A stretch of 64,000 nt of DNA from a virus (IMGVR_UViG_3300020046_005360); one strand, 5' to 3'. Counted from the stretch's first letter, positions 12,679 through 45,595 are shown. Notes: generated by a model from the sequence alone, not told the origin. Translations and numbers: made by a program.

Positions 12679-13636
12679 TATTAATTATTTTAATAATATC
12701 ATCGGAATATAATTCTTCATATTCGTATTTATCTCCGGGACTATATATCTCTATTCTTAATTCCCCTTCTTGTGGATTTTTATCTATTTCTATTACTTCT
12801 CCCGTTTTTTCTCTTAATCCAGTTCCCTCATCAAAAATAAATTTATATTTTTTACCTATTTCTAAATCATTTATATTAACTAAATTTGGATTATTTACTT
12901 TAATTTCGCTAAAAGTAGAGTTTTGGTCTGCTACAGTATATTCTTGTAGTGTTAAATCATATCCTGCACGTAAAGCTTCAGATTGAGCTTGTTTAAAATT
13001 TTGTGGCAGCTCTCCTCCAAAGAAATCTAAGATATGCATATAATCATTAAATTTTTTTAATTGAGGTTGGTTGACTTTGATTTCATTAAGTATACCAACT
13101 AAATTTTCTTTTAATATTCTTAAATCTTCTTTTACTACAGTACGTGAAAATTTATTTCTTATTGATTTTAAATCTTTTACTAATTGGATTAGTTTAGGAC
13201 GTGAATGGAAATCTTTAAGTTGGACTTTTTCAAATTTACTTATTAAGTCAGTTAAATCTTTATGGATAGTAGAATCGTCTACTTCTTTTTTAACACTCCA
13301 TGTTACTGATTGTGTTTCAGGGTCTATATCTGTTACAGTTGTTCTTCTACCACCTGTTTCAGATGATTGACCAATGTTAAAATCGGAAACGTCTTCATTC
13401 AAATCATCATATTCTTTCCCTGTTCTTTGTTTAAATAATTCACGGGCGTATTCACTTACTTCAGATTCATTTTCTACCTCTTCATCCTCAAAATCGTTAC
13501 CTCCTGAAAATTCACCAACTTCATCTAAAGCTTGTCCCCAGCATTCATCAAATATTTTTTCATAATTTAATGGGTTGTTTACTTTTATTTCTGTAATTAT
13601 ACCAGCTAGTTGCTGCAGTCTTTTTATTTCGTTCAT
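12671..13636 (-). CDS. EIKVNxP-module polyprotein (putative internal head protein)
   Basis: [16 protein letters not shown] leader, 3 tag copies. Confidence 0.65.
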   Translation of the reverse strand: MNEIKRLQQLAGIITEIKVNNPLNYEKIFDECWGQALDEVGEFSGGNDFEDEEVENESEVSEYARELFKQRTGKEYDDLNEDVSDFNIGQSSETGGRRTTVTDIDPETQSVTWSVKKEVDDSTIHKDLTDLISKFEKVQLKDFHSRPKLIQLVKDLKSIRNKFSRTVVKEDLRILKENLVGILNEIKVNQPQLKKFNDYMHILDFFGGELPQNFKQAQSEALRAGYDLTLQEYTVADQNSTFSEIKVNNPNLVNINDLEIGKKYKFIFDEGTGLREKTGEVIEIDKNPQEGELRIEIYSPGDKYEYEELYSDDIIKIINNG

Positions 13637-14133
13637 TATATTCTTGTTTCTGTAATTCCTAATTTCTCTGAGCGTGAATAATGCGCAGAAACGATTATAC
13701 TAAGCGATACTCCTGAGTCTTCGACACCGTCACCGACCTTATAAGAATAATCGGGATCTCGACCTGATACTAATTGATTTTCGTCCACATTATCTATTTC
13801 ATAATACTCCTCATTCCACAACATTACATCTCCTATCATAGGAACGACATTAGCTTGTTTTAAATGGTATTTTAAAAAACGTACTGTAAGGGGTCTTGTT
13901 CTATCTTGTCCTTCTTCTCCATCTGTCGTAGCGTAATTACCTCTTTCAATAAGACAGTTTATTAAAACAGGACCAGTAAAAGATTTTTTAAGACTTTCAC
14001 CATATATATTTGTTTCTGATTCTTCTATATTACATAAATAATATCCTACTTTTTGTTCAATAATTTGTCCTAAAAGTTCTTTATTTATGTTATTTATGAA
14101 ATCAGAGTCTCGACTGCGTTCCCAATATGCCAT
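13636..14133 (-). CDS. Neck / head closure protein (gp14-like)
   Basis: NIYGES...[13 protein letters not shown]; next to the gp13-like gene. Confidence 0.65.
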
Positions 14134-14136
14134 AAT

Positions 14137-14427
14137 CTATGTATTTTTAGAATATTCTTCTAATTCGTTATATATAGTTTTTAAAATTTGAGGGTCTAAA
14201 TCAAATATTACCCCCTTATAGCCATCCTCATAGTCTTCCCAATTAAATCCTAGTGGGATATTATCATCAAGTATATCTCTTGCTGCTACATCATAATGAT
14301 CTTCCCCTTCATTAACATATAATTTATTATATAAATCCCATACTTTTTGAGGAGTAATATTTGGATTATTTACTTTAATTTCAGTAATGATACCAGCTAG
14401 TTGTTGTAATCGTTTTATTTCGTTCAT
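14137..14427 (-). CDS. Single-module EIKVNNP protein
   Basis: [22 protein letters not shown] start. Confidence 0.65.
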   Translation of the reverse strand: MNEIKRLQQLAGIITEIKVNNPNITPQKVWDLYNKLYVNEGEDHYDVAARDILDDNIPLGFNWEDYEDGYKGVIFDLDPQILKTIYNELEEYSKNT

Positions 14428-14429
14428 AT

Positions 14430-15611: not shown

Positions 15612-15612
15612 A

Positions 15613-16269
15613 TTATATTATATTTCTTTTTATTTCTCTGTTATACTTACTACATAAAGGTTGAAGGTTAGTATAATGACTTAATTTAATTAATTCTTCC
15701 TCTGTTTTAGCACTACTTATTGGGATTATATGATCTAGATCCCAAGTTTTATTGAATTCTAAAATTCCATCTTTTGGATTACCATAATTTTCTAATTTCA
15801 TCCAAGGTTCGAATTTAGATTCTATATAATCTTTAAAAATAACCCATTCACAACCTAATATTTGATAGGTTCTAGTTTTTTTCGAATATCCCATATTACG
15901 AAAAGACTCATTAATTCTACAAGCAATTCTATTTTTTAATTTAAATAGGGGATCATTATTAGCTCTATTTCTAAAATATTCTCTATCATACTCTTTCTTT
16001 TGGGGTTTTTGGAAAATCCTAATCTCTTTAAGTTCTTCAGAATGTTCTTTATTATATTGATTAGAATATTCTTTTATAGGAACCTCATTAATTTTATTAT
16101 ATTCTTTTCTATTTTCCCATATTTTTTCTTTATTATCTTCTTTATATTGTTTAGCACAAACTTTACATCTACCCGATAATCTATCTTTTTTAGATTTATC
16201 AGAATAAAAATTACTTAATTCTTTATCCTGTTTACAAATAACACATTGTTTCATATAAATAAATATCAT
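15613..16269 (-). CDS. HNH homing endonuclease
   Basis: CxxC...CxxC N-terminus; WDLDHIIP...HYTNLQPL. Confidence 0.8.
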   Translation of the reverse strand: MIFIYMKQCVICKQDKELSNFYSDKSKKDRLSGRCKVCAKQYKEDNKEKIWENRKEYNKINEVPIKEYSNQYNKEHSEELKEIRIFQKPQKKEYDREYFRNRANNDPLFKLKNRIACRINESFRNMGYSKKTRTYQILGCEWVIFKDYIESKFEPWMKLENYGNPKDGILEFNKTWDLDHIIPISSAKTEEELIKLSHYTNLQPLCSKYNREIKRNII

Positions 16270-16409: not shown

Positions 16410-16421
16410 GTTTTATTTTCG

Positions 16422-17728: not shown

Positions 17729-17745
17729 TTTTATTGGTAATATAC

Positions 17746-17773
17746 AAAAAGAGGCTTGGATATCCAAGCCTCT
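17746..17773 (-). terminator. Terminator after major capsid gene
   Basis: agaggcttgga-ta-tccaagcctct hairpin followed by T run on the minus strand. Confidence 0.75.
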
Positions 17774-17795: not shown

Positions 17796-19436
17796 TTAGA
17801 TTGAGTTCAAGTCTGCGACCAGAATTTTACCATAGAACTCAGGACGAACCATTTTCTTAGCGTATCTTGTCATAATACCTTTCCTAGGTGTAAATGTTTC
17901 AGGATCGTATACTAATGGAGTAGTCATTACTGGAATATATGGTGCATATACAGCTCCAGTTTCCAAGAATTGATTACCTTTGAATCCCATTAATATCGTA
18001 TTCTCAGTCATATATGGGTTTTTGTAAACTTTATAACGAGAATTAATAGCTCCTACTTTTTGTACACCGAATGCGTAAGATGATTTTTCAACACTACCAT
18101 CTGTATCTGCTGCAAATCCGGGGATTGATTCAAGTACAGTAGCAACTGTTGGAGATACTACCATGAAGTTAGCACCACCTCTTAAAGTTTTCTGATGGAT
18201 TGCATTAGAAACTTTTTGCATTTTAATACCTAGTGTTTGGAACCAAGACATTTTAGTGTAATATAAACCTGCGTTATTTACATTTGTAAATCCACTTCCA
18301 GTATAATCTTGACCTACTTTAGCTGACCAATATTCTGTTGTTGGAGCGTTTTGGATTAACATATCCAAGATTTCCATATCAATCTCTAGTGAGATGTATT
18401 CTGACATTAAACCAGTAACCTCAGCCTCAGCATCGATTGATTGGAATGCATTTAAATCTTGAGAGAACTCTGGAGTCCAGCTTGCTTTTAATTTTTTAGT
18501 TTTAGCAGCAATTGTATCAGATTTCATTTGGATATTGAATTCTGGGATAACGATATCTGTTGCAGAAGCAGCATTAGGAATTGAGAATGTACCTGCTGTA
18601 CTATCTTCATAATCACCTCTGTTATTATCTTTAGTTTGTTTATTATATAAAACTGAAGCTGCTGTTAAAGTAACTGAACCAGTATAGTAGAAATCTACTG
18701 TACCTGCAGCTGTTAATCTTGTATAATTTTGTAATAAGTTTACTGGATTAACACCTGAACCTGATACTACAAACGCTCTTACTCCGTTTACATCAAATGA
18801 TGTTAATGAAGAAGTTGCTACTGAAACTTTATAGATTTGACCTGCAGCAATAGAAGCTGATACAGCTGAATCATAATTTACATCTGCTAATGTAAGTGAA
18901 GATGATGCTACAGTTCCTGAAAATACTCCAGAAGCTGATGCTATTGCGAATTGGTTAGTTGAGTAACCAAACTTACCTGCACCATATAAACCACCATCTG
19001 CGTCATTTGAGAAGATATTATTTTGGCTGTTTTTACCATATAATGAATCTCCTGCGTTAAATGGGGATTTTGTGTTACCATATTGGAAATCTAAGAAGAA
19101 GATTAAACCTGCTGGTAAAGACATTGGTTGAACAGAAACGAATTCTTTAGCGGCGATTTGACCAAATACTTTACGTACTAATGGTAATGCAACGGCTGCG
19201 TATTGTTCTCCATTACCTGCTGTGAATGTAGCTCCACCTTGGTTTGTTGTATTGCTCTCTCTTACTAATTGCTTAGCTTGATTTTCTAGCAACTGAGCCA
19301 TGTGTGCTTTTTCTGTGGTATTTTCGATACCTTCTAATAGACCTGATTTGGCCCATTTACCTGCTAATTTCATAGCTCCAGTTAATTGAGCTTGATATGG
19401 ATCTGCAGATTCTAATAATTGTTGTACTACTGACAT
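17796..19436 (-). CDS. Major capsid protein (gp23-like)
   Basis: LLENQ, VSVQPMSLPAGLIF, KLKASWTPE..QDL, YAPYIP, GIMTRY. Confidence 0.96.
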   Translation of the reverse strand: MSVVQQLLESADPYQAQLTGAMKLAGKWAKSGLLEGIENTTEKAHMAQLLENQAKQLVRESNTTNQGGATFTAGNGEQYAAVALPLVRKVFGQIAAKEFVSVQPMSLPAGLIFFLDFQYGNTKSPFNAGDSLYGKNSQNNIFSNDADGGLYGAGKFGYSTNQFAIASASGVFSGTVASSSLTLADVNYDSAVSASIAAGQIYKVSVATSSLTSFDVNGVRAFVVSGSGVNPVNLLQNYTRLTAAGTVDFYYTGSVTLTAASVLYNKQTKDNNRGDYEDSTAGTFSIPNAASATDIVIPEFNIQMKSDTIAAKTKKLKASWTPEFSQDLNAFQSIDAEAEVTGLMSEYISLEIDMEILDMLIQNAPTTEYWSAKVGQDYTGSGFTNVNNAGLYYTKMSWFQTLGIKMQKVSNAIHQKTLRGGANFMVVSPTVATVLESIPGFAADTDGSVEKSSYAFGVQKVGAINSRYKVYKNPYMTENTILMGFKGNQFLETGAVYAPYIPVMTTPLVYDPETFTPRKGIMTRYAKKMVRPEFYGKILVADLNSI

Positions 19437-19462: not shown

Positions 19463-20566
19463 TTATTTTACGATACCAGCTAATTGTTGCATTCTAAGTA
19501 CAAAATCACTTTCTTGTGTTGTTACTTGTTCGTTTAATGCTCTTGGAGAAGAACCCGCTGGTCTTGAAGCGCTTCCTCTGTTTTCTCTTAATTGAGTAGT
19601 TGGCGTTGTGATTAGAGATTCTTTTAATGTTAAGAAAATATTCTTAGTTTCATTAATATTTCTTCCTCTGTCTAATGCATTAACTACTTTTACTTTTTGA
19701 GATTCTGTTAAATTTTTAGCTTTAAATATTTTATTTACATATAAAAGTTTAGAATTTAACAAATTCATTTCATTAAGTGATTTTCTTTGTTCTGCTATCA
19801 CTTTTTTAGCCTCTTGGAGTTCAGTTGATTCTGCTCTTAATGCGGATCCGGCTGCTGATCCTCCTGCGGCTAATTCTGCTTTAATTTTAGCTAATACTTT
19901 AGGTCCGGCTTTTTTGATCATTGCAATGATATTATCTAATCCAGCGGCTGCTGTATTTGCAGGATCAATTGATCCACCACCCATTTCAGATAAAACTTCA
20001 TCTAAATTAATATCTTCTTCTTCACTTTCTTCTGACTCAGGTTCAAATTCTACTTCACCTTCATCTTCAAATTCTCCTTCAGGCTCTTCTTCACTTAATT
20101 CTAGTTGAACTTGACGAATAATATCTTTAAGTTCATCCACTGTAATTTCACCTACAACATCATCACCTTCAGCGTCTTCTTCTAATTCTAAACCTTCTGC
20201 TCTTAGTGCCGTACCTGCTGCTGCTCCTCCTGCTTCTAATTCTTTTTTAATTTTAGCTAAGATACCTGGAGTTTTTGCTGCTGCTCCTTTAATCATTGAG
20301 ATTAAATTATCCAATCCAGCTGCTGCTGCACCAGAAGGTTCTTGCATCGCTTCATCAACGGCTCCTTCTTGTCCTTCTAATTCGTTAAGTAATTCATCTA
20401 AAGATACTTCTGATTCTTCTTCCATTTCATTTAATTGGCTTGAAAGCATACTTTTAATTTGTGGGGCGAACGATTCAGCCATAGCTAATTTAGCATTACT
20501 AAATGCGGTTTCTCTAATTTCTTTTGCTTCTGCTACTGCGTCTGCAAAAAGTTTTGGTTTTGACAT
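19463..20566 (-). CDS. Prohead scaffold/core protein (gp22-like)
   Basis: Acidic, many L-x-E sites, between protease and capsid; ends RMQQLAGIVK. Confidence 0.8.
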   Translation of the reverse strand: MSKPKLFADAVAEAKEIRETAFSNAKLAMAESFAPQIKSMLSSQLNEMEEESEVSLDELLNELEGQEGAVDEAMQEPSGAAAAGLDNLISMIKGAAAKTPGILAKIKKELEAGGAAAGTALRAEGLELEEDAEGDDVVGEITVDELKDIIRQVQLELSEEEPEGEFEDEGEVEFEPESEESEEEDINLDEVLSEMGGGSIDPANTAAAGLDNIIAMIKKAGPKVLAKIKAELAAGGSAAGSALRAESTELQEAKKVIAEQRKSLNEMNLLNSKLLYVNKIFKAKNLTESQKVKVVNALDRGRNINETKNIFLTLKESLITTPTTQLRENRGSASRPAGSSPRALNEQVTTQESDFVLRMQQLAGIVK

Positions 20567-20761: not shown

Positions 20762-21382
20762 TTATCTTAAGCAGCACATTCCTGTCTGAGAGCAAACAAT
20801 TTCTGATATTATTTCGTTTAATTTATCGTATTTAGAATTAGTTTTTGGTATATAATTTTCATTAAGACCTAAAGGTTTAACGAATGCTCCTTGTGTTGAT
20901 GGTTCTGATACTATATCCCAACAAACTAAAGAAAGGTCGTCTTGAACTTCTACAGTACCTTCACCTAAACTTTGCACTGAACCCATAGCTCTAGATGATA
21001 TACCTATTTGCACTCCACCTTTTACTAATGCTTTTACTATATTACCTGAAGGGGTGTCTAATATTAAAAGCTTAGCTTTTACATCATCTCCATCCCACCA
21101 AACCTCTGTTATTCTGTGGCAAACGTTTTTTAAATTGACAACTTGACTATCAGGGTGATCTAATTCTCCTGTTGCTCTATTTTCAACAACGGGACCATTT
21201 TTATAGTTTTCAATTTCTCTTTCAAGTATATTTTTGGGGTAAATCCTTCCATTTTGATTTTTAGCATCAGCACGTTGAATAATACCTTCAAGAATTAAAT
21301 CACCACTATTATGTTTAATACTCTCATTAATAGATTTAGGGTCGAGTTTAAGTGGAAAGTGTTCTATTAATAATTGCTTCAT
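20762..21382 (-). CDS. Prohead core protease (gp21-like)
   Basis: NQNGRIYP, GELDHP, GISSRAMGS, DIVSEPS. Confidence 0.93.
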   Translation of the reverse strand: MKQLLIEHFPLKLDPKSINESIKHNSGDLILEGIIQRADAKNQNGRIYPKNILEREIENYKNGPVVENRATGELDHPDSQVVNLKNVCHRITEVWWDGDDVKAKLLILDTPSGNIVKALVKGGVQIGISSRAMGSVQSLGEGTVEVQDDLSLVCWDIVSEPSTQGAFVKPLGLNENYIPKTNSKYDKLNEIISEIVCSQTGMCCLR

Positions 21383-24482: not shown

Positions 24483-26396
24483 TTAGATTATTTGGTCTTC
24501 ATTTAAGATATTATCCTCATTTAACATATTACTTTCTTCAAATAATTTAGTTTTACGGGGAGGAAATATATCTTTATTTTTGGCATACACAGAATATGTA
24601 TTTTCTAATCTTAATTCACCTTTTTTAGTTGGAGGATTTAAACTATCTCCATCACTATTATCTTTTTTCATACCATACGAACCTGTACGATCTTTTCCTA
24701 ACCCACTTTCTTGAGTGTTATAAGTTGAAGCGTGTTCTTTAGGTCTACCTAAAATAGCATCAGGTACTACGTCAGATTCAGGATCATATCCTTTAGGTAC
24801 ACCACCACTTCCAGGATATCTATTTTTTGGTTGTAAAGAGGCTAAATGTGCTGGAGTTCCATATACTTCATTACTTTCATTCGGATCGTTCCCTTCACTT
24901 TCAATTTGAGATATTCTAAACTTACGTTTTTTATCTTCAATAATAAGATCTCTATATTCCTCATATTGATTTTGAGAAAAGTGGAAAATATTATCGTAAA
25001 CCCAATCTGATGGTACTAAATTATTCTCAAGCAATGTAACAGCTAAATCTGCTTTTTCTTTAAGTAGTGCTGTTCTTTCTTGGTCATAAATTATAGAAGG
25101 AGTAGTTAAGGATAAGGTAAAATTAGTTAATGCTTCACCATCATATCCTTGGGCATATAAATGCACTAAAGCTATTTTAGTTAATTCAGATACTAATATT
25201 TTTTGTATACGTTCTACTGTACGAGCAAATCTAATATCTTCTGCAGCAAGTGTACTTTTACCACTTAAATCTTTTTCATATCCAAAATAAGCTTTTGGAA
25301 CTTTTAATGCAGCAAACAATTTATCTCTAAGGTAATTGATATCATCAATAGCCATATATTCAAGGCCTTTTGTAGTATCAATTTTAGTTGCAGTATCATT
25401 ACCCCTTACCGGAATATAGAAATCTTCTAATATATTTTGTATATTATATTTTAAATTATATTCTCCCGTTTTAGGATCAACATATGGAGTTTTTTTCATC
25501 TTATTGATGGTTTTCTGCATATATTGTTCTACCTCATTAGGTGGGATATTACCAACATTTATAAAGAATGTTCTTTTTTCAGGAGCTCTAACTATTCTAT
25601 GAATAAGCATAGCATCCTCCATCAATGTAAGTTGTTTAAATATTTTACGAGCAGGTTCAAGATAACTACGTCCATAAGGAAGATAATTATAATCCGCTAA
25701 TAGGCGGAAATGAGCCATCTCATAATTTTTGAACTCTTGTTTATCACCATTTAAATTATTATAAGCTTGATGACCATATGGAGATTGTTGTGTGGCGTAA
25801 GTAGGATCATATACAAATTTTACTTCCATAGGATTTTCAGGGTTTTCACCTTCTAATCTTACTATAGTATATGATGAATATGGTATAACATTATATACAC
25901 CATACTTTTCTGATATTTCTAATTTAAGATAAAAATCACCATATTTACACATATTTCTAGTCCACGACCATAAATTGAATTCTATATTTAAAATATCATA
26001 AAATAGATTGTATAATATTTTTTGCATAGTTTCATCTGAACTACGTATTTGTAAAGTTTCTCCAAAATCATTTCGTAAAGATACTTCATCTGATATTATA
26101 TCCAGAGTAGAAGCTATAATAGAATCAGTATCCATAGCTTCATAATCAGTATATAACTGTACTCTTGTTGTTGGGACTTGATTTATACTATTATATTGGT
26201 TTCTTCCAGATGTAGTGTAAATTTTGTTATATCTATCGTGTTGGGAATTTGTAACTAATTCTCCTTGTTTTTGGACATCATTAATATCCACAACTTTAAG
26301 TTGGTTACCTCCTGTATTGTGAAGTACTACATCTGTAGAGAATAATTTCTCTATTTTTTGAAAAAACGTCTTATTTTGTTTTGGAGTTTCTTCCAT
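24483..26396 (-). CDS. Portal protein (gp20-like)
   Basis: LMEDAMLIHRIVRAPEKR, EDFYIPVRG, ALKVP. Confidence 0.95.
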   Translation of the reverse strand: MEETPKQNKTFFQKIEKLFSTDVVLHNTGGNQLKVVDINDVQKQGELVTNSQHDRYNKIYTTSGRNQYNSINQVPTTRVQLYTDYEAMDTDSIIASTLDIISDEVSLRNDFGETLQIRSSDETMQKILYNLFYDILNIEFNLWSWTRNMCKYGDFYLKLEISEKYGVYNVIPYSSYTIVRLEGENPENPMEVKFVYDPTYATQQSPYGHQAYNNLNGDKQEFKNYEMAHFRLLADYNYLPYGRSYLEPARKIFKQLTLMEDAMLIHRIVRAPEKRTFFINVGNIPPNEVEQYMQKTINKMKKTPYVDPKTGEYNLKYNIQNILEDFYIPVRGNDTATKIDTTKGLEYMAIDDINYLRDKLFAALKVPKAYFGYEKDLSGKSTLAAEDIRFARTVERIQKILVSELTKIALVHLYAQGYDGEALTNFTLSLTTPSIIYDQERTALLKEKADLAVTLLENNLVPSDWVYDNIFHFSQNQYEEYRDLIIEDKKRKFRISQIESEGNDPNESNEVYGTPAHLASLQPKNRYPGSGGVPKGYDPESDVVPDAILGRPKEHASTYNTQESGLGKDRTGSYGMKKDNSDGDSLNPPTKKGELRLENTYSVYAKNKDIFPPRKTKLFEESNMLNEDNILNEDQII

Positions 26397-26420: not shown

Positions 26421-29201
26421 TTAGCCTAATAACCAGGTTAAGTCTTCTACACCCCCATGTCCATCTTGCATGCGATATGGATTTTGTTCATATGGATTAT
26501 TATATACAGCAGGAGTAGCATAATTTACACTTGTGAAACCATTTAATACTGCTCTCGATAATTCTTCACTTTGTTTTTGATACATTAGTGTTGTTTCTCT
26601 CAAGAATAAAAATATTCCAATAGGTAAAACTAAGTCATCATTATGACCTTGTTGTGCTTGTGGTCTACCATTTTTATATATAAATGTTCTAATCTCTTCT
26701 AATGCACGTTTTGAAAATATATCAACTGAATATTCGTTCATATACGAAATTAGTTTTGAGATGACAAGTGGTCTTGTCTTTTGGGTCATAGAAAATCCAG
26801 GAACCATACCTACATTACTATTATACTTAGATAAATATTGCTCCGAATCAATAGGGTTGTCTATTTTTGGAGAATAATATAAGTTTTTATATTCTTTGTC
26901 TATCATTCTACCTACAACGTCCCATCCTATACTTGCATTTTCGATAACACACAAAGCGTTATTCCATTCAACACAAGCTGCATGTATAACATTAGCAAAA
27001 TCTTTAGTAGGTAATTGAGATTTAAATTCAGCTACTTGACGACATAATTCTATATCAAAAACATGGAATGTAGAACTGTCTGCTCCATCTCCACGAGCAA
27101 CATCGGCAATAAGTGCGTAAGATCGAGAATAATCAGGTATTTCAAATATCCAATATTCTCCATTTAACCCTCTACGTTCAAGAGGTTCTCGTGCTATATT
27201 TTTAGTATAATAATTTAATACATCAGTATCGATGACCGATTCACCACTCGTGATGAAATCTGCGTCACAATTATGTACTATACCATACTCTGTTACATAA
27301 GTGTGTGTATTTTCAACTTCAAAATTATATACTTGTATTTTTTCTGATGAAGGATTTAATTGTAATATAGTTAATGGAATCCCATTATCAATCATAAATT
27401 TAGTAGTCTTTCTATTATTAACTACTGTATTATAATTTTTTATTCTCTTACTAAATATTTTTTCATTCGAATCAATCTTAGTATTACTATAAGTTAATAT
27501 AGTACTATTTTTACATTGATATTCTTTTCCTAATATAATATTAGTACCTTCTTTTTTATTTATTGATATTGTTGTATTATATAACCCCAACAAATTACTT
27601 ATATATAAAGAATCATACACTAGTCTTTCAGATGTTAAACCTAATTTACAATTGTAATCAGATTTTAACATTCCATCTCCAACCATTATACCATCAAGTA
27701 TACCTTTTAGAGTTTCTTTATTACTATTTTCCCATACAAAAGAACTTATATGTTTATCTTGACAATATTTTCCTCCATCAATACATAACTCTATGAATTT
27801 AAGAAATATTTGGTTTTTAACATATAAATTAGCTCCTTTATCTCGTTTACTAAGGTAATGAGAAAATATACTTATATTAAACTTTTTATTAATATAATTT
27901 TGTAATATTAAAGGCCATGAATGTTCTTCACTCTCTGTTTCTCCATTATACGAAAATGAAACTACATTATTCCAATAACTACCTTCAGATAAAAAACAAC
28001 CTATAATAAAACCTAATTCATAATCAAATTCTATATGTCGATGTACGTAAGATTTTTTATTAATCCAAATTGATTCATCATTAGATTTTAGAGGAAAATA
28101 TTGTGGATTATTAACTTTGATATAATCTAATAAATCTATTTTGGAAGGATTATCATACTGATTTATGTTAGTTGGAAATAACTGTATATATTGATTATGA
28201 TCATATATACTTTCAACTGTAGTCCATTTATTAACAATGTTTAAGAAAGGATGATTACCTGTTGTATATTTTTGAATATTATTAATCCCATTTTTGATTT
28301 CATATAAATTGTTTTCCTCTATATGATTAAATGTTTTTAATACCTTATTAAAAGTTCCATCATGACTTAATACTATATCTCCTTCTTGGATGTCTTTAAT
28401 ATATTTAGGTCCTAATTTTGTATACACAATTGTATCTCCTGAGAAACATTCTTGTGCTGCATGTTTTACACCTAAATCTCTATCTTGTTGGTCTCTCCAA
28501 GTTTGGTCTCGTTCTGGATGGACAGTCCAAGGAAGTAAAAGTGGAACAAAACTGTTTAATTTCTCTTGTGCTTTGGTAAATTCTTTATAAAACCAATTAC
28601 CCGTTCCATTTGGTGATGATAATGCGATACAAGAACCCCCAGTAGCTAGGGTTTGTTGAGCACCAGTAAAGATTCTTTCAATATTATCAATAAATGCGGC
28701 CTCATCTATTACAAGTAAAGTAACGGCTTCAGATCTTGATGCATTATCAGTTGCGGGTTTAGCTTGTATTTGAGAACCGTTTACTAACTTAAGTAATAAT
28801 TTATTATTCTCTGTATCTTTTAATCTTAACCAAGATGGAAGTTGATCGTATGAAAATCGTACTTTAGTAATTAAGTTTTTCGCTGTATCTTGCGTAGTAG
28901 CTAATACAAGAATATTCTTATCCTTATGGAATAACATTAACCAAAGTGAGAAAGCAGAAACTAGGGTTGATATACCTAGCTGCCTCGATTTATTAATTAT
29001 ACTCCACTCCCCCTTTTGAAAACGCCTTAATAGTGTTTCTTGGAATGGATATAGATTAAATAACATCCTACCTCGTTGTGGATGTTGTATATAATAATAT
29101 TTTTTACAGAAGTATACAGGGTCACTGGCACATTTATAAAATTCGTCTTTAACTAATTCCTTAAATGATTTTTGTGGTATTATATTTTCTTCTTGTGCCA
29201 T
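26421..29201 (-). CDS. Terminase large subunit (gp17-like), intein-containing
   Basis: KSRQLGIST Walker A, LLVIDEAAF Walker B, SSPNG, DVARGDG, HNDDLV. Confidence 0.95.
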   Translation of the reverse strand: MAQEENIIPQKSFKELVKDEFYKCASDPVYFCKKYYYIQHPQRGRMLFNLYPFQETLLRRFQKGEWSIINKSRQLGISTLVSAFSLWLMLFHKDKNILVLATTQDTAKNLITKVRFSYDQLPSWLRLKDTENNKLLLKLVNGSQIQAKPATDNASRSEAVTLLVIDEAAFIDNIERIFTGAQQTLATGGSCIALSSPNGTGNWFYKEFTKAQEKLNSFVPLLLPWTVHPERDQTWRDQQDRDLGVKHAAQECFSGDTIVYTKLGPKYIKDIQEGDIVLSHDGTFNKVLKTFNHIEENNLYEIKNGINNIQKYTTGNHPFLNIVNKWTTVESIYDHNQYIQLFPTNINQYDNPSKIDLLDYIKVNNPQYFPLKSNDESIWINKKSYVHRHIEFDYELGFIIGCFLSEGSYWNNVVSFSYNGETESEEHSWPLILQNYINKKFNISIFSHYLSKRDKGANLYVKNQIFLKFIELCIDGGKYCQDKHISSFVWENSNKETLKGILDGIMVGDGMLKSDYNCKLGLTSERLVYDSLYISNLLGLYNTTISINKKEGTNIILGKEYQCKNSTILTYSNTKIDSNEKIFSKRIKNYNTVVNNRKTTKFMIDNGIPLTILQLNPSSEKIQVYNFEVENTHTYVTEYGIVHNCDADFITSGESVIDTDVLNYYTKNIAREPLERRGLNGEYWIFEIPDYSRSYALIADVARGDGADSSTFHVFDIELCRQVAEFKSQLPTKDFANVIHAACVEWNNALCVIENASIGWDVVGRMIDKEYKNLYYSPKIDNPIDSEQYLSKYNSNVGMVPGFSMTQKTRPLVISKLISYMNEYSVDIFSKRALEEIRTFIYKNGRPQAQQGHNDDLVLPIGIFLFLRETTLMYQKQSEELSRAVLNGFTSVNYATPAVYNNPYEQNPYRMQDGHGGVEDLTWLLG
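27270..28448 (-). mobile_element. Intein (393 aa) with LAGLIDADG endonuclease
   Basis: Begins CFSGDT, TGNHPF block B, IGCFLSEG and DGIMVGDG motifs, ends VYNFEV...VHN followed by extein Cys. Confidence 0.93.
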
Positions 29202-34811: not shown

Positions 34812-37190
34812 CTAAAGTAATCCTGCGCGATGCATGAGACGTTCTCGAAGGAATTGTTCTTCAAAGTCTTCTTCATCGTCCTGATTATCAAGATGTGTAT
34901 CTATCCTATCTGAAACATATTCTAGATCTTGTAATTCTTCTGGAGTAAGTTCATCCATTCGAATAATATATTTATCAAACCATTTTTGGTCAACACCTTT
35001 ATCTTTCATAAGTTGTTTTAATGGGTTTGGATTATTTACTTTAATTTCTTTAATTTGGTTTATTGATTTAGAAATTTTATAATTATTTAAATCATCTTTA
35101 GGGATAAATATATGAACATCTTCATCATTTTTATGATAAAATATATAATCTCCTTGATCTTCACCATCGAAAATATAATCATATTTTCCATAATCCCCAT
35201 CATATTCGTATATATCATATATATTTCCTTTTTGGAGATAAAATGGTTTATTGATTTTAATTTCTTTTATATCACTTTTACCACTATTAATTTCAAGTTC
35301 AGATGAAGGGTATACTCTTCTTGGATCACTACTGAAATCTGGGTATCCACTTATTAAAGGTGTACCTGCTACAGAAGAAGTATTTCCATCTATACCTTTT
35401 TGTACTACTTTGTTATTTTCATCAACTAAAACCCAATCTTCATAACTATAGTCTTCACCTTTTAGGGGTAGGAGTACTAATTTTCTACCTTTATCTTCTA
35501 TAATATAAGGAAGAGCGTATAATAGAGTTGAATATTGTTCTTTCCCATTTACTTTTTCAGCTAAGTTTGTAATAACTTTACGTTCTTCGGGACTAAGTTG
35601 ATTCCACTCTTTGGCTGTAATAGGTTTTGGGTTAATATCTTGAACAGGCATATCTGCAGAAGTAGATAATTCTTCGTCACCAATATTTGTATCCTTACCA
35701 AATTCCCAAGGTGTAAACAGTTTTGAATAAATTTCAAATATTTGTTTTTGTTTTGGATCCTTAATATACTTAATAGCTTGAGGAGGTAAGTAATCTAGAT
35801 TTTTTAATTGTTTTTGTACATAATTTTCTGTAGCTTTGGGGCCAAAGAATTTTTCTATATATTCAAATGTAAGATTGTCGTCGAATGTTTCTAGATATTT
35901 TTGTTTAGCTTCGTCATCTAAAAATTTAACGTAAGGTAAAGGTATAGGATCCTTAGAATAATTTGTATGTCTGAAACGGAATGCTGCATATCTTTTTGCT
36001 AGTCCTTCGTTATCTTTTAAGTCCGCATAAGGGAATTTTTGACCATAATTTATGGCTAAGTTCTTTAATTCTTTATCTAATATTTTAAGAATTTCAGGTG
36101 ATAAAGATCCCGCATTAGCTTGAACATAATTTTGTTTATCTTCGTAATCTAACTCACGGAAGTCATTTGCAGATAATCTTTTACCTCGCATTGCGGCACC
36201 AGAAATCTCAGCTTTAGAAGGATCAACATATTTAAAAATATGTTCTAAATGTCCTATTTTAGGCCAAACTGGTGGAGCTGTTGTTTTAAGTTTTTCCCAA
36301 GGATGAAATTCTTTATCTCCACTATTTTTTGCATCTGTAATCCAATATTTTTTATTTCCTTCACCAACATGAATTACAAAAGCGTGATATGGATCTGTAT
36401 CGGGGAGACTTCTATCAAATACGAAATAAAACATACGGTTTGTACCTTCCATAAAACGATACCTATCATACATTGTATTAGATGGTTGAGCTATACACCA
36501 ACCATATTTTTTCCTACCACCTTCGGAAGGATTATAAGCGATACATTTATGTTGTGCATCTCCTTTATAAATTTCGATACCATCTTTATCATACACTTTA
36601 TCTGCGTCTGTAGTAGCGGTATTTTGATCACCTTCTTCCCCAACTTTAGCTTGCATAGGGAATAAAGCATCTAACATATGTTCCATCTGACCAAAATCCC
36701 AAGCACGAGGGTCTAGATATGCATCGTTAGGAATAAGACGTTTTGGGACTAATTTTTGTACTTCTTCTTTGCTATAATTTCCATCTTCGGTTCCGTTCGC
36801 TAAGGCGTATTTAAGGTTACGTCTGTTATTCATAAAACGAATTACGTAGCTCGTTACATCACCTTTATCCATACGTTCTTTTTCTACGAACATCTGGATA
36901 GCATCTTTTTTTATCTTATCCTCTTTTTCAGGTAAGGAACGCAGTAAGTTAACCATATCAGCCCAAGAATACTTATCTATATTAAGATAATTTTGACCTG
37001 TTTTTAGTTCGTCGCTAAGGGCTACTTGTTGTAGTTTAGAAGATAAACCTGATTTAATCTGATCAAAACGTTGTATTACTTGTCTTGCAAGATTATCGTC
37101 GATTTGAGGTGATGTTTTCTTCCATCTATCTATTGTAGTTTGGATAGTCTTGTCTGAGTATTCTAGTATTAATATATCTGTTAGTTTCAT
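34812..37190 (-). CDS. Large putative internal head protein with two C-terminal EIK(V/I)NxP modules
   Basis: MKLTDILILE start, YGWCIA domain, ends RLMHRAGLL. Confidence 0.65.
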   Translation of the reverse strand: MKLTDILILEYSDKTIQTTIDRWKKTSPQIDDNLARQVIQRFDQIKSGLSSKLQQVALSDELKTGQNYLNIDKYSWADMVNLLRSLPEKEDKIKKDAIQMFVEKERMDKGDVTSYVIRFMNNRRNLKYALANGTEDGNYSKEEVQKLVPKRLIPNDAYLDPRAWDFGQMEHMLDALFPMQAKVGEEGDQNTATTDADKVYDKDGIEIYKGDAQHKCIAYNPSEGGRKKYGWCIAQPSNTMYDRYRFMEGTNRMFYFVFDRSLPDTDPYHAFVIHVGEGNKKYWITDAKNSGDKEFHPWEKLKTTAPPVWPKIGHLEHIFKYVDPSKAEISGAAMRGKRLSANDFRELDYEDKQNYVQANAGSLSPEILKILDKELKNLAINYGQKFPYADLKDNEGLAKRYAAFRFRHTNYSKDPIPLPYVKFLDDEAKQKYLETFDDNLTFEYIEKFFGPKATENYVQKQLKNLDYLPPQAIKYIKDPKQKQIFEIYSKLFTPWEFGKDTNIGDEELSTSADMPVQDINPKPITAKEWNQLSPEERKVITNLAEKVNGKEQYSTLLYALPYIIEDKGRKLVLLPLKGEDYSYEDWVLVDENNKVVQKGIDGNTSSVAGTPLISGYPDFSSDPRRVYPSSELEINSGKSDIKEIKINKPFYLQKGNIYDIYEYDGDYGKYDYIFDGEDQGDYIFYHKNDEDVHIFIPKDDLNNYKISKSINQIKEIKVNNPNPLKQLMKDKGVDQKWFDKYIIRMDELTPEELQDLEYVSDRIDTHLDNQDDEEDFEEQFLRERLMHRAGLL

Positions 37191-37193
37191 TGT

Positions 37194-37466
37194 TTAATAT
37201 TTAGGATATAAACCTGTTTTAATAAAAGTTAAATTATGATCAAAATCATTTTGATCAAGATAACCAATATTAATTAAATAATTCACTGCATCTTCTGGAG
37301 TATTCTGGTCCTTAAAGTCTAATATTTCATGGGGTTCATACTCCTGGTCTTGCATACTTAATATATTATCTTCTTTCCATTCATTAAAATATGGATATAT
37401 AGGATTGTTTACTTTTATTTCAGTTATTATACCAGCTAGTTGTTGTAATCTTTTTATTTCGTTCAT
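37194..37466 (-). CDS. Single-module EIKVNNP protein
   Basis: [22 protein letters not shown] start. Confidence 0.65.
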   Translation of the reverse strand: MNEIKRLQQLAGIITEIKVNNPIYPYFNEWKEDNILSMQDQEYEPHEILDFKDQNTPEDAVNYLINIGYLDQNDFDHNLTFIKTGLYPKY

Positions 37467-39642: not shown

Positions 39643-41193
39643 TTATTTGTTTAATAAAATTTCTAAGTCTTTATATAATTGTGTTTTCTCTTCTTGATCT
39701 AAAATATTAAAAATTTTTTCATTTTTGATTGGATTTAAAAATACACCCTCACTAAAACCATATTTATTTCCTAATTCTTCAAGTTCTTCATCTATCTCAG
39801 GAAACGTGTCATTTTCTTCAAAATAATCTTCAATTTTATTATGTAATGAATTATATAAATCCATAAGTTTTTTAGAATCAATTAATGGATTATTTATCTT
39901 TATTTCCGAAAGTATTCCAGCTAATTGTTGTAATCTTTTTATTTCGTTCATTGTATTTAAATTATTTTTTTCTAAATATAGAATACCATTTTTTTCTTTA
40001 ACATTATAATGACCCCAACTATTTTTTTCAATATATTGTTTATAGGTATTATTTCTTTTTTTATGAATATCACTAGGGATATCACGATCAGGATAATTTA
40101 TAATTATAACATTTGGGTCATATTTACTAAAATATTTTTTAGCAACATTAAAAACATTATTTAATATTTTTAAATATAATTGTATATTAGATTGTTCTCC
40201 AGTATTTCTTAATTTGGTAGTACCATATTCTTCATTAACAGAAAAAGATAATATACCAACTTTTTGAAATTTTTCGGGTATTTCATCTTTTAAATCTTCA
40301 TAAAAATGTTTGTCTCCAGTCATTAAATTTTGTAAATGAGTTCCATATATTTTATCTATATATTCAAATGATACTGTAGGATTTACAGATAAAATAACTT
40401 CTATAGTATTACCATCTACAGTAAATGTTGATTTAGTAGTATTAGATACATCCTCAAATGCTTGTGTTTGTTTTTCATCTGTAGGATTTAATTCTTGGTT
40501 TATTTTTATTTCTCTTAAAAATGGGTCGATCTTGTACTTCTTACCGTCCATATGAAGTGTCTTTAAACCATCCAAATTTAACATTCTGTAGCCCTTAGGA
40601 CCATTTCCAATTTTAAGGTCGTATACGGGAACAAGTCCTTTATCTTTGGGACTATATGGAAGTTCTCCACCAGACGTATACTTGCGCACACCTGTAAGGC
40701 CATTCATTGCGCGTAGTGATCCGTCTCCTCGTTTAGTGAATACAGCTTGGAATATTTTTCCTTTAAAGGAAAGTAATTCACGTGCTTGTTCTTTACTTAT
40801 AGTAGTATACTCGGCTTGTTTTTTCTCTATTTCTGGAGAAATAGGTTCATCTGGAACAGGTATAGTTTCAGGGGCTACTTCTACATCAGGTTCAACTGTA
40901 ATTTCTTCTTCATCACTCTTTGGGATAAGTTCGTCGTCTGAAATTTTTATATTTTCCGGTTCTTCTTTAGGAACAGGAATAGTTTCAGGTTCTAATTCTA
41001 CATCCTCTTCGTCTTTGTCTTTGTCTTTGTCTTTGTCCTCATCTTGTTCATTAAGACCTTGTGGAAATGTCTTTTTGTAATCTAAAACAGCTATTCTCTC
41101 CTTAATAACTCCATCGATATATTTTTTATCCCATTTTTTGTTTTGGGGATCTTGAAGGAGAATGTTTGATATGTCGGAAATTTTTATACTCAT
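39643..41193 (-). CDS. Multidomain protein: acidic repeat, SH3/WYL-like domain, two EIK modules
   Basis: FTKRGDGSLRAM...VYDL...GYRML; internal [14 protein letters not shown]. Confidence 0.6.
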   Translation of the reverse strand: MSIKISDISNILLQDPQNKKWDKKYIDGVIKERIAVLDYKKTFPQGLNEQDEDKDKDKDKDEEDVELEPETIPVPKEEPENIKISDDELIPKSDEEEITVEPDVEVAPETIPVPDEPISPEIEKKQAEYTTISKEQARELLSFKGKIFQAVFTKRGDGSLRAMNGLTGVRKYTSGGELPYSPKDKGLVPVYDLKIGNGPKGYRMLNLDGLKTLHMDGKKYKIDPFLREIKINQELNPTDEKQTQAFEDVSNTTKSTFTVDGNTIEVILSVNPTVSFEYIDKIYGTHLQNLMTGDKHFYEDLKDEIPEKFQKVGILSFSVNEEYGTTKLRNTGEQSNIQLYLKILNNVFNVAKKYFSKYDPNVIIINYPDRDIPSDIHKKRNNTYKQYIEKNSWGHYNVKEKNGILYLEKNNLNTMNEIKRLQQLAGILSEIKINNPLIDSKKLMDLYNSLHNKIEDYFEENDTFPEIDEELEELGNKYGFSEGVFLNPIKNEKIFNILDQEEKTQLYKDLEILLNK

Positions 41194-41194: not shown

Positions 41195-41488
41195 TTATTT
41201 TGATGGAGTTATTTTTGTTAATTCATCTTCCCAAAATTCTATTATATTACCACCATCTTCTTCATCCCAATCATCTTCAAAACCATTTGGATCCATTTTA
41301 AAAAATGCAGACTTATTATTTTCAACAGGATTATAACCATCAAATTCAACCCCAGTTTCTGATATATTTTCTCCTTCCAAATCATATTTTTCTCCTAATC
41401 TTAAATTAGAGAATTTTACGTTTGGATTATTTACTTTAATTTCAGTTAATATGTCAGCTAGTTGTTGTAATCTTTGTATTTCGTTCAT
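41195..41488 (-). CDS. Single-module EIKVNNP protein
   Basis: MNEIQRLQQLADILTEIKVNNP start. Confidence 0.65.
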   Translation of the reverse strand: MNEIQRLQQLADILTEIKVNNPNVKFSNLRLGEKYDLEGENISETGVEFDGYNPVENNKSAFFKMDPNGFEDDWDEEDGGNIIEFWEDELTKITPSK

Positions 41489-42792: not shown

Positions 42793-42794
42793 AT

Positions 42795-43472
42795 TTAAGC
42801 TATTAATTGTTTTACTTCATCAATACCTTCTACGGCTGATTTAAATATTTTCTTCCATTCAAAGTCATATAAACCACAAGGTTCCGGATTTAGATAAATT
42901 ATATTTTTATTATATTGAGTTATATTTGCTGATGGGTATACTTGTAGACTAGAACCTATTATAATTAGATGGTTTGATTTTCTAACTATATTTTTATATA
43001 GATGTGGTATATCTACTGGTAGTTGTTCTTCAAAAAGAACTGTGTTATGTCTAAGTTGTTCTTTGGTTATTGGATGTAAATCTCCTTCTTTAATATCTTC
43101 ATTCCATTCATATGGGTTGTCTTTATTCCAATCACAAACTTCAAAAACATTTCCATGTAAATGAATTACATTAGTACTACCAGCCCTTTCATGTAAGTTA
43201 TCTATATTTGTTGTAATAACAGTAACATCATGGTCTTTTTCTAATTCAGCTATAACTTTATGAGCGTAATTAGGTTCACAAGTTGAAATTAATTTTCTAG
43301 CATCATTATGGAAGTCAAGAACTTGAGTTAAAGCTATATCCAATCCTCTTCTTGATGCAACTAAGTTAACATCATATTTACTCCATAAACTATCTTCACT
43401 ACCGCGAAAAGTTGGAATCCCACTTTCCTGTGAAATTCCAGCTCCGGTGAAGAATATTATTTTTTTCCTCAT
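42795..43472 (-). CDS. Sir2/CobB-family NAD-dependent deacylase
   Basis: TGAGISQESGIPTFRG, TTNIDNLHERAG, HLHG, IGSSLQVYP. Confidence 0.92.
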   Translation of the reverse strand: MRKKIIFFTGAGISQESGIPTFRGSEDSLWSKYDVNLVASRRGLDIALTQVLDFHNDARKLISTCEPNYAHKVIAELEKDHDVTVITTNIDNLHERAGSTNVIHLHGNVFEVCDWNKDNPYEWNEDIKEGDLHPITKEQLRHNTVLFEEQLPVDIPHLYKNIVRKSNHLIIIGSSLQVYPSANITQYNKNIIYLNPEPCGLYDFEWKKIFKSAVEGIDEVKQLIA

Positions 43473-43475
43473 ATT

Positions 43476-44813
43476 TTATTTGTTAATTAAAAGTATTTCA
43501 GGTCCCATTTCTTTAATTTGAATTTGTGGATATTTTTCTTTACAAATTTCAGCACATTTTAAAAATATTCTACGTCTATATTCACTTATAGGGTGGAGTT
43601 TTATTAGTTGTGGTGTTTTATTTATCAAATATTTTGGGATTATTTCATCTCTAATGATTTTACATATAGTATTAGACCTCATTTCATCTTTTCCACCTAC
43701 CAACCCATCCTCAGGATTAATACTTCCAATCATTTTATCATAATCGTAAACTTCTATCCATTCTCCTTTTTTATTTTTTAAAACAAAATAAGATTCTATA
43801 TATTTAGATGAAGGATCAAAACTAACTTCTAATTTATTTCCATACTTATCCTCGAAACCCCAATGATTACTAATGTCTTCAGAATAATTATAAGCCATAT
43901 CAGGATCGGCAAGTTCCATAAATATTTCAGTGTCCGTATGAGATATAGAATCAGACTCATTTAAACCGATACATTCTTTTTGTATTCTAGCTTCAATTAA
44001 ATTTTTCTTTCTAAAAATAGAAGAATCTTTATTTTCTCTTATTATTCTAAACCTAATTGGTTTCTTTACTTGTACTTCTTTATCTTCTTGTAATTCAGCT
44101 TCCTCTTCTTCAGGAGCTTCTTCATTAGGTACTTCTGAAGTATCAACACCATCTAAATCTAAATTTTCGTCCCCAGGTTCCGCTGTCATATCTTGGACAA
44201 ATTGGTCCTTCATGTCGGTCTCGTTTTCAATCTCTTCACCAGGACCTGCACTACCAGGAGGTAGTCCTTGTAGTAATAGGTTTGATATAGCTTTTATAGC
44301 ATATTCTTCATCTTTTAAGTTCATTAAATGATAAACTTTTCCAGACACTTTTGCCATATAAGCTTTTGGGTTATAAATTAAGAGAAAATTACGTCCGTTA
44401 TGTAAAAGTATTTTAAATGTAGTTGGTTTGGGGCTTACAACAAATATACTTGTTATATAATCTTTATACACAGGAGACATTAAGTCTGTAAGTGTAGCTT
44501 CGAGTGAAGGATATTTTTGAAGAATATATTCGGTTGGATCTTTTTCAAATTCAAGTGTTTCTTGTCTTTGATTCTCAATAGCGTTATCTATCTCTTCTCT
44601 AAGTATGCTTTTTAAATCCATTTCTTGAATAATTTTACTACCAATTTTTAATATACCTTTATAAGATTTAGGTTGTTTAGTTGAACCATCATTTTCTTTG
44701 AACCAACCCCAACCATCATTTTGGTGATGATTTTGCCAATAAAGTTTATCTCCATTTTTGAAGGTAACTAAATCTCCGAAATTTAATTTTGGTGGAGTAT
44801 ATTTTTTACCCAT
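43476..44813 (-). CDS. Multidomain hypothetical (putative internal head protein)
   Basis: ILREE, LQE, IRE, LIE, LNE sites dividing segments; PKPTTFKILL domain. Confidence 0.6.
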   Translation of the reverse strand: MGKKYTPPKLNFGDLVTFKNGDKLYWQNHHQNDGWGWFKENDGSTKQPKSYKGILKIGSKIIQEMDLKSILREEIDNAIENQRQETLEFEKDPTEYILQKYPSLEATLTDLMSPVYKDYITSIFVVSPKPTTFKILLHNGRNFLLIYNPKAYMAKVSGKVYHLMNLKDEEYAIKAISNLLLQGLPPGSAGPGEEIENETDMKDQFVQDMTAEPGDENLDLDGVDTSEVPNEEAPEEEEAELQEDKEVQVKKPIRFRIIRENKDSSIFRKKNLIEARIQKECIGLNESDSISHTDTEIFMELADPDMAYNYSEDISNHWGFEDKYGNKLEVSFDPSSKYIESYFVLKNKKGEWIEVYDYDKMIGSINPEDGLVGGKDEMRSNTICKIIRDEIIPKYLINKTPQLIKLHPISEYRRRIFLKCAEICKEKYPQIQIKEMGPEILLINK

Positions 44814-45595
44814 TATCTTAGATCTAATTTATCTTTAGGAATTTTGATAAATTTTAATTCATCATCCCCAGTGATTTCATAAGGAATATTATGTTTATCT
44901 AACAAAGAAGTTAATTTATCCATTTGTTCTTGTTCTACTTCCCTATCTTCTTCCTCTTCAAATAAAAATTCCATTTTTATGAATCCAGGTTCATCAACAT
45001 AAGGTTCAGTACCCCACCAAGTTTCCCCATCTTTGGATAATGAAACTACTTTTAGTTCTCCATCATCATCATCTTCATCATAATCAAATTGAATTTTTCC
45101 AGGTGAGTTTACTTTTATTTCACTAAAAGTAGAATTTTGATCTGCTACAGTATATTCTTGTAATGTTAAATCATACCCAGAACGCAATGCTTCTGCTTGG
45201 GCTTGTTTGTAACTTTGAGGTAATTCTCCTCCAAAAAAATCTAATATATGCATGTAATCATTAAACTTTTTTAATTGGGGTTGATTTACTCTTATTTCAC
45301 TCTGAATTCCAGCTAATTCCTGCATACGATCTACTTCACCTCCATATACAGGTTTTTCTCCACGAATAATTCGTGCTACGTTTTCAGGATCAGCTCTATC
45401 TAATACTTTATTTCCACGAGCAACTTGATCTTCATCTTCAGTTACTTCAATATCACCATTAGCTATTCTTAATAATATTTTATCCAATGTATCTTTAGTT
45501 AAACCTTTTGTTGTACCTCCTGGAGCGTAGCGTGAATAACCTTTTTCTTCCAATAGTACTTCTTTAATTATATTTCTTAAATGCAATTTTTTCAT
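44813..45595 (-). CDS. EIKVNxP-module protein
   Basis: RMQELAGIQSEIRVNQP; shares a 66-aa cassette with 12671..13636. Confidence 0.65.
   Translation of the reverse strand: MKKLHLRNIIKEVLLEEKGYSRYAPGGTTKGLTKDTLDKILLRIANGDIEVTEDEDQVARGNKVLDRADPENVARIIRGEKPVYGGEVDRMQELAGIQSEIRVNQPQLKKFNDYMHILDFFGGELPQSYKQAQAEALRSGYDLTLQEYTVADQNSTFSEIKVNSPGKIQFDYDEDDDDGELKVVSLSKDGETWWGTEPYVDEPGFIKMEFLFEEEEDREVEQEQMDKLTSLLDKHNIPYEITGDDELKFIKIPKDKLDLR

Follow-up and report, generated by a model that had tools for sequence, protein, structure and literature searches.

Leader peptides resembling the scaffold C-terminus in a clade of T4-like phages: a candidate capsid-targeting sequence

The 64,000-nucleotide stretch of viral DNA IMGVR_UViG_3300020046_005360, here called the window, is part of a 175-kb contig with a G+C content of ~28% and derives from a distant T4-like myovirus. 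Four open reading frames (ORFs) on its minus strand, which carries the genes of the region considered here, begin with nearly the same 16-residue leader, and a closely similar peptide forms the C-terminal tail of the head scaffold protein. The explanation that we favor, with a probability of about 0.65, is that the leader, below called the tag, is a capsid-targeting propeptide of the type described for phage T4 (capsid-targeting sequence, CTS) and acts by copying the scaffold tail. A preliminary description of the window had proposed that cargo proteins mimic the scaffold helix in order to enter the prohead. The parts of this proposal that can be checked in silico hold, namely the head module, a protease of the T4 gp21 family, the I/L-x-E end of the leader, the presence of the tail throughout the clade, and the portability of the leader.

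The Tag and the Scaffold Tail

The four ORFs begin MNEI[KQ]RLQQLA[GD]I[IL]TE, with IKVNNP directly after (starts 13636, 14427, 37466, and 41488; Table 1). The leader is identical at the protein level in the first three of them; the fourth carries a LADI variant, found also in the scaffold tail of LR756508. A fifth copy lies inside ORF 39643-41193, starting at position 39951, and may also represent an internal start of a 102-amino-acid (aa) tagged protein. Another internal form, RMQELAGIQSE, is present in 44813-45595 at 45328, and one further copy was found elsewhere in the 175-kb contig (P0009, MKYNEIERLQQLAGIITEIKVNNP). The window leaders end in I-T-E, L-T-E, or L-S-E. The preliminary description had listed the four starts, both internal copies, and the match to the scaffold end (RMQQLAGIVK), and all of these are present.

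The pattern R[LM]Q[QE]LA[GD]I occurs seven times in 31,805 ORF residues, against 1.1e-5 occurrences expected analytically and none in 300 shuffles. The identity of three leaders as protein could suggest an origin without function, the leaders being remnants of gene duplication or of a recombining DNA cassette and their likeness to the scaffold tail a coincidence. At the DNA level, however, the copies differ by synonymous codons (AGA/CGA, CTG/TTA, ATA/ATC/ATT, AAC/AAT, and CCA/CCT), and the 60 bases upstream of them are mutually unrelated. A DNA repeat or cassette is thereby ruled out, and selection must have acted on the peptide. Given also the excess of copies over expectation and the conservation of the tag across lineages with capsid proteins only ~50% identical and unrelated bodies, the functionless origin is hardly credible.

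The relationship between leaders and tail was recovered from both directions by hidden Markov models (HMMs). An HMM built separately from leaders in IMG/VR matches all five window leaders (E-values from 1e-9 to 2e-4) as well as the scaffold tail (1.5e-4). In the reciprocal test, an HMM built solely from scaffold tails of relatives was run against the 1013 six-frame segments of the window. Four of the five leaders rank among its top eight matches, together with the window scaffold, the copy inside 44813-45595 (at 45328), and the end of 39381-39629. With so short a motif, E-values of single matches are marginal (0.04-0.3), and the weight of this result lies in the joint ranking. A tblastn search of GenBank phages with the 22-residue leader gave no match, the query being too short. 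The protein 39381-39629 itself, 82 aa long, basic, and proline-rich, ends in ..ADRFQKLK-stop, which resembles a truncated scaffold tail.

The tail is a constant feature of scaffolds in this clade. We gathered 80 IMG/VR loci around relatives of the window capsid protein that are 51-80% identical to it; in 75 of them the capsid gene is preceded by an ORF, and this ORF ends in R-[MWFL]-[QKR]-x-L-A-[GN]-[IL], 0-4 further residues, and a stop codon in every case. About ten residues before the tail these relatives have a conserved [IVL]-x-E. In an alignment of 61 scaffolds with a mean column identity of 20%, R358 and A363 are invariant, so that the tail is kept while the rest of the protein diverges. 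Among GenBank genomes, the scaffold ends in RWQKLAGIIK in Flavobacterium phage immuto, RMKKLAGIVK in Microcystis phage Mel-JY01, RMQKLADIS in LR756508, and RIKRLAGL in Rhodothermus phage RM378, with a weaker, loose form, LKTLAGRKAK, in LR756511. The motif is absent from gp22 of T4 (which ends in ..VYAKVASRF) and from gp22 of one cyanophage (..VDAIARWSK).

Structure prediction gives a similar picture for both carriers. The AlphaFold2 model of the window scaffold, computed with 60 relatives as the alignment, is all-helical and has a low-confidence linker at residues 318-352, a helix at 353-362 (SDFVLRMQQL), and the non-helical residues AGIVK. An amphipathic helix with a short end, a helix and hook, is thus predicted at the extreme C-terminus after a flexible linker. 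In the 90-aa tagged protein 37194-37466, AlphaFold2 places a helix at residues 2-10 (predicted local distance difference test score of 92 for the block) and a break at A11-G12. Hydrophobic moments of tags and tails range from 0.43 to 0.65, the scaffold tail having 0.43. A sequence search of PDB with the scaffold tail found no relative.

Two observations on individual scaffolds should be mentioned. In GenBank, the immuto gene product gp067 (L001, 18725-19966) bears the annotation "DNA polymerase phi-like protein"; its position, its helical acidic sequence, and its tail RWQKLAGIIK identify it as the head scaffold. At the locus L230 (IMG/VR contig G014, minus strand, 328-3168), the scaffold and the major capsid protein form one ORF of 947 aa, in which the tail is joined to the capsid protein N-terminal region (..NRWQVLAG|PYQDQL..). 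The fusion is a genuine deletion variant or else an artefact of the assembly.

Carriers of the Tag in Related Phages

Two genes of immuto, those for gp230 and gp083, begin MKKQILSEQF[KR]RMQ[FK]LAGIITE|S, where the bar denotes the candidate cut site. Similar starts are found near the capsid gene in other lineages (MKKQLNEIKRMQLLAGLLKE, MAQLINEAKRMQYLAGIINE, ..EEFKRMQRLAGLITE, and MENKEFKRLQKLAGIIKE). Candidate cut sites of the same type were found independently by HMM or by a looser regular expression: ITE|S in immuto and L033, INE|S in L084, and IKE|N in G003.

To estimate the spread of the tag, IMG/VR was scanned with a DNA pattern for R-x-Q-x-LAGI-[IL]-x-E that is blind to position within a gene. 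The scan yielded at least 120 loci, compared with an estimated ~20 chance matches. The matches listed, to which the counts in this and the next paragraph refer, comprise 122 distinct copies, and in 116 of these the R is preceded, at a distance of 2-16 residues, by a Met located shortly after a stop codon. As in a CTS, a short N-terminal peptide is conserved here on otherwise unrelated proteins, including the four in the window, and it ends in the site type of prohead proteases (L/I-x-E). The residue at P3 of the 116 N-terminal copies is I in 84 and L in 32, I/L at P3 and E at P1 being fixed by the pattern. Of the 109 complete tagged proteins, 89 have S, G, or N after the E, a position that the pattern leaves free.

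The bodies behind the tag are diverse. BLAST grouped the 109 complete proteins into 84 clusters, including 68 singletons. The bodies of these proteins are 37-340 residues long (median 118); 83% are net acidic, compared with 47% of control ORFs from the same loci. A Pfam search of these proteins produced only three matches, weak or unrelated, and Pfam and PHROGs returned nothing useful for the tagged proteins of the window. Such diversity bears on the alternative that tagged proteins are not cargo at all, but modulators of assembly or size competing for the docking site of the scaffold, or scaffold-like core proteins that leave after cleavage. The CpmB protein of SaPI1 does compete with a scaffold by such tail mimicry (PMC5644958), and several tagged genes are located in or beside the head gene block. 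Assembly factors, however, tend to be conserved, whereas the 84 unrelated families, mostly singletons, have no common fold; in addition, cleavage at the site that separates them from the tag would set the bodies free, as suits cargo. We regard a modulator role as very improbable.

In the window and its close kin, the tag is coupled to another motif. The preliminary description had each leader ending in x-x-E directly before IKVNNP; this is correct for the window, but IKVNNP is not part of the universal tag, which in other lineages continues with S, G, or N. The window has 20 occurrences of the sequence [LIVF]-x-E-IK[VI]N-x-P (0.002 expected), which lie between 12671 and 55284 where modules meet in ~11 proteins. 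These include the metabolic-looking 959-aa protein 51440-54319, with an N-terminus resembling nicotinamide mononucleotide adenylyltransferase, which has the EIKVNxP junction motif, though not the tag. Three micro-ORFs (starts 50902, 55147, and 55284) begin with MK[VI]NNPN. The motif is absent from the immuto genome, and as a sequel to the tag IKVNNP is restricted to close kin of the window (L183, L210, L204, and the metagenome proteins P0002-P0008). The motif is therefore distinct from the tag and may mark a junction of modules or extend a protease site.

Tag-bearing phages have the head module of the clade. Seven of nine long tag-bearing contigs encode its capsid protein at E<=1e-200; in six of these seven the scaffold is readable as a separate ORF, and all six have the tail, the seventh being the fused L230. 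The S77 protease was found in all three complete tag-bearing genomes that were tested. A different address might still be envisaged, recognized by a partner unrelated to encapsidation (a chaperonin, a degradation adaptor, or a host factor) and used by the scaffold too. The presence of GroEL and GroES genes in immuto is consistent with it, as is the junction motif in the metabolic-looking protein. On the other hand, the only carrier in which the motif is conserved is the head scaffold, where it occupies the extreme C-terminus throughout the clade; moreover, the tag is followed by the site type of the head protease and is confined to phages with this head module. We regard such an address, too, as very improbable.

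In the scan the leader is almost exclusively N-terminal, but C-terminal and internal positions also occur, and the preliminary description is to be corrected in this respect. A 77-aa non-scaffold family (six loci) ends in ..I[ED]E|[IM]KRWQLRAGIIK-stop, a 309-319-aa non-scaffold family ends in ..YRMKKLAGL-stop, and one 798-aa protein has the tag at both ends. In both orientations checked, the cut-site type lies on the body side of the tag, as tag-[IL]xE|body at N-termini and as body-[I]xE|tag in scaffolds and the 77-aa family. Homologous bodies can carry the tag at different places: residues 132-222 of ORF 39643-41193 are homologous to the body of an N-terminally tagged L204 protein, and the module IKVNQPQLKKFNDY.. 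is preceded by RMQELAGIQSE in 44813-45595 and by ILNE in the paralogue 12671-13636.

The 792-aa protein 34812-37190 is a weaker case. It does end in RLMHRAGLL, as had been pointed out, but this ending alone had no match at E<10 with either the leader HMM or the scaffold-tail HMM. Its homologue in L204 ends in RRLLHRAGIIK-stop, and that in L212 contains an internal RRLQQLAGIITE after 645 residues in common; because homologues have these better forms, the window copy is credible. An ESM Atlas search with this protein retrieved only viral hypothetical proteins. The heptapeptide MKLTDIL starts both the 792-aa protein and the unrelated 309-319-aa family (L122, L181, L188, and L199). Both also end in a scaffold-like tail, and the heptapeptide may be a second terminal motif that they have in common.

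Possible Mechanism and Comparison with Known Systems

In the scaffolds of this clade, a flexible linker is predicted to lead into an amphipathic helix of ~10 residues (..xxR-M/W-Q-x-L), after which a few non-helical residues (A-G-I-I/V-K) close the protein. On the model of 80alpha and P22, this tail would dock the scaffold inside the assembling shell, most likely on the N-terminal region of the capsid protein. Proteins bearing the peptide would occupy the docking sites of the scaffold and so be taken up into the prohead. Cleavage by the gp21-family protease would follow, at the [IL]-x-E right after the N-terminal tag; in scaffolds and the 77-aa family, the matching site lies before the C-terminal tail. 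The mature protein would thereby be set free in the head, from which scaffold fragments and the short peptide of the tag would leave. The cargo would consist of hundreds of unrelated, mostly acidic proteins of 37-340 residues without known function, which are candidates for injection with the DNA, like IPI of T4. What the sequences show is the motif with its conservation, placement, portability, and restriction to the clade, together with the predicted helix and its non-helical end; binding, its partner, cleavage, packaging, and injection are inferred.

The closest functional parallel is provided by the CTS of T4 internal proteins IPI-III and of Alt (Mullaney and Black 1996, as summarized in PMC3012670 and PMC5694885). 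The protease gp21 cuts after L/I-x-E (PMC5694885) and removes the 10-20-residue CTS of internal proteins (PMC3012670). Both systems have a short N-terminal peptide of this length that ends in I/L-x-E on unrelated, fast-evolving proteins, and the two phages agree in having a separate scaffold besides a capsid protein similar to gp23 and a protease of the gp21 family. The likeness to T4 drawn in the preliminary description is thus apt for the cut-site type and the head module. It does not extend to mimicry, since the T4 CTS has no detectable likeness to the gp22 tail, whereas the tag visibly copies the tail of its scaffold. The sequence MKTYQEFIAE, present twice in T4, has at most the terminal x-E in common with the leader, and therefore we do not place the tag in the T4 CTS sequence family. 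The tag further differs in its additional C-terminal and internal positions and in its presence on at least 84 body families in uncultured phages.

A structural parallel comes from phage 80alpha. An amphipathic helix of 11 residues and a 5-residue hook containing the RIIK motif make up the last 16 residues of its scaffold and bind the N-arm of the capsid protein, and CpmB of SaPI1 copies this tail (PMC5644958). In both systems the last 15-16 residues of the scaffold comprise a ~10-residue amphipathic helix and a five-residue end (A-G-I-I/V-K in the clade, R-I-I-K in 80alpha), and a second, unrelated protein copies the tail; use of the same site is seen in 80alpha and proposed for the clade. 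The differences are that 80alpha belongs to the HK97-like siphovirus capsid lineage and that its mimic is not cargo, but a size-redirecting scaffold of a satellite with the tail at the C-terminus only. Binding to the capsid protein is resolved in 80alpha and postulated for the tag.

The identity of the partner is the point on which readings of encapsidation diverge, as the peptide could bind the N-terminal region of the capsid protein, the scaffold core, or the portal. One alternative is that the tag serves in assembly of the core and has the body of the scaffold, the portal, or the protease as its partner, so that tagged proteins co-polymerize into the core. The T4 literature does describe the CTS as co-polymerizing into the scaffolding core. 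Besides, the capsid propeptide motifs KW..LLEG and ENQ are common to T4, whose scaffold has no such tail, and therefore no change in the capsid protein is seen to accompany the tail. Docking on the capsid protein agrees better with the scaffold tail resolved on that protein in 80alpha and with P22 genetics (PMC5644958), and the long low-confidence linker before the tail suits a tether that reaches the shell. Encapsidation through another partner is rather unlikely.

More distant parallels involve other terminal peptides. The N-terminal 30 residues of P1 DarB are an encapsidation signal, with no consensus among Dar N-termini (PMC9024508), and head proteins of phiKZ and SPN3US have long propeptides of >100 residues removed by a gp21-related protease (PMC5694885). 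The propeptides of phiKZ and SPN3US, besides their length, do not represent one common sequence. Encapsulin cargo-loading peptides are C-terminal and uncleaved. In all these systems, a terminal peptide is sufficient or required for loading into a shell of the HK97 fold. In herpesviruses, the protease and the scaffold have one C-terminal capsid-binding tail in common, which is cut off at the maturation site. The likeness consists in one tail on several proteins with a protease site just before it (in the clade, [IVL]-x-E ~10 residues before); however, herpesviruses have nested genes and two carriers, and the tag is a portable peptide with dozens of carriers.

Several observations weigh against scaffold-tail mimicry as the mode of targeting. 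Of two incomplete tag-bearing contigs, G008 (81% complete) has only a weak, partial match to the capsid protein, with no S77 protease found, and in G012 (58% complete) neither was found. The tail is present and the tag was not detected in Mel-JY01 and in four of five complete IMG/VR genomes; the tag is an accessory feature of the clade. There is little covariation between tag and tail: a position that is W in many scaffolds stays M or L in the leaders, and one that is N in some scaffolds stays G. As a test, covariation proved uninformative, since the motif varies too little and its W/M differences are not matched by the G/N differences. An N-terminal tag also lacks the free C-terminal carboxylate of the scaffold end, a group that might be needed in binding. 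Finally, the gp22 tail has no second copy in the genome of T4 or of the cyanophage, so that T4 experiments lend mimicry no support. Generalization to these phages was dropped for this reason, and mimicry is claimed for the present clade only, as something new relative to T4 biology.

A broader scenario seems to us about as probable as its negation. According to it, a clade of uncultured T4-like phages, probably of Flavobacteria, uses one portable address peptide derived from the scaffold tail (N-terminal, C-terminal, or between modules) and removed by the head protease, which loads into the capsid, for injection, hundreds of proteins that are unrelated and mostly acidic and may include many counter-defence factors. 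The hosts of the clade are probably Flavobacteria or, more generally, Bacteroidota. The tag and tail strings had no match in the searched literature, and a title-level search of the literature on this phage group returned topics other than the tag.

If our interpretation is correct, scaffold-tail mimicry, described for a satellite that hijacks 80alpha, extends to the phages' own cargo. The route of the T4 CTS to the prohead was never tied to a defined contact, and a tag that is the scaffold's own tail would offer a concrete, testable mechanism. How a CTS binds, namely by competition for a scaffold docking site, would for the first time be readable from sequence. Since the tag can be read in this way, hundreds of phage proteins that resist annotation are marked as candidate packaged or injected proteins. 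The result would be a catalogue of injected phage effectors and a rich source for searches of anti-defence functions. The peptide would also be a ready-made packaging tag for this phage group and a natural encapsidation tag for engineering Bacteroidota phages.

Head Module and Neighboring Features

As would be required for a CTS of the T4 class, the scaffold of the window phage is a separate protein, its capsid protein is gp23-like, and its protease belongs to the gp21 family (Table 1). The N-terminal propeptide region of the capsid protein is conserved and contains a candidate maturation site, LVRE|S, at residues 57-60, with IVSE|A as its counterpart in immuto. The scaffold contains 20 [LIV]-x-E sites. 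The protease is 33% identical to T4 gp21 and has kept the GEL(D/N)HP and G(I/V)SSR blocks. The tagged gene 14137-14427 is directly downstream of a head-completion or adaptor-like gene (14430-15611).

Table 1. Positions of tag copies, the scaffold tail, head genes, and junction motifs in the window
Feature	Position	Strand	Remarks
N-terminal tag, 321-aa protein 12671-13636	13589..13636	-	IMG/VR-leader HMM 31 bits, E 5.5e-9
N-terminal tag, 96-aa protein 14137-14427	14380..14427	-	ORF start, then IKVNNP
N-terminal tag, 90-aa protein 37194-37466	37419..37466	-	ORF start, then IKVNNP
N-terminal tag variant MNEIQRLQQLADILTE, 97-aa protein 41195-41488	41441..41488	-	ORF start, then IKVNNP
Internal tag, residues 415-430 of ORF 39643-41193, then IKINNP	39904..39951	-	Full copy
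Internal tag RMQELAGIQSE, then IRVNQP, in 44813-45595	45296..45328	-	Scaffold-tail HMM rank 2 in window
Degenerate C-terminal tail RLMHRAGLL-stop, 792-aa protein 34812-37190	34815..34841	-	Weak alone
Scaffold C-terminal tail SDFVLRMQQLAGIVK-stop	19466..19510	-	Predicted helix at residues 353-362, then five non-helical residues AGIVK
gp23-like major capsid protein	17796..19436	-	phrog_138 6.9e-68; 53% identical to Flavobacterium phage immuto
Scaffold gene, 367 aa, all-helical	19463..20566	-	Immediately upstream of capsid protein gene; aligns with scaffolds of relatives
Prohead protease, Peptidase_S77 (T4 gp21 family)	20762..21382	-	Pfam 3.3e-33
Portal	24483..26396	-	
Large terminase	26421..29201	-	
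Junction motif, example sites	13081, 12904, 21888, 22122, 22838, 23357, 35045, 37764, 52120-53743		

Other features of the region are of less direct relevance. The large terminase is 926 aa long, compared with ~524 aa for TerL of immuto, and its terminase matches, at residues 18-240 and 677-867, surround an unrelated insert that may be an intein or an endonuclease. Three Cys-rich ORFs with alike N-terminal CxxC patterns are located in or near the head module (15613-16269, 17180-17767, and 31699-32319), two of them in the interval that separates the head-completion gene from the capsid gene; all three may represent free-standing genes for HNH-type endonucleases. A box similar to TAATATTTATA, a candidate phage promoter element, lies 10-40 bases before the start codons at 17119, 24457, 30097, 31623, 32319, and 45595, with a near-match before 37466. 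It was rejected as evidence for late promoters because it does not separate expression classes; one tagged gene is among the several that it precedes. Finally, an N-terminal pattern, MK+..L..IIKEV(L/V).E, is common to the head-region proteins 44813-45595, 39381-39629, and 22761-23615 and to immuto gp072 (L001, 16454-16675).

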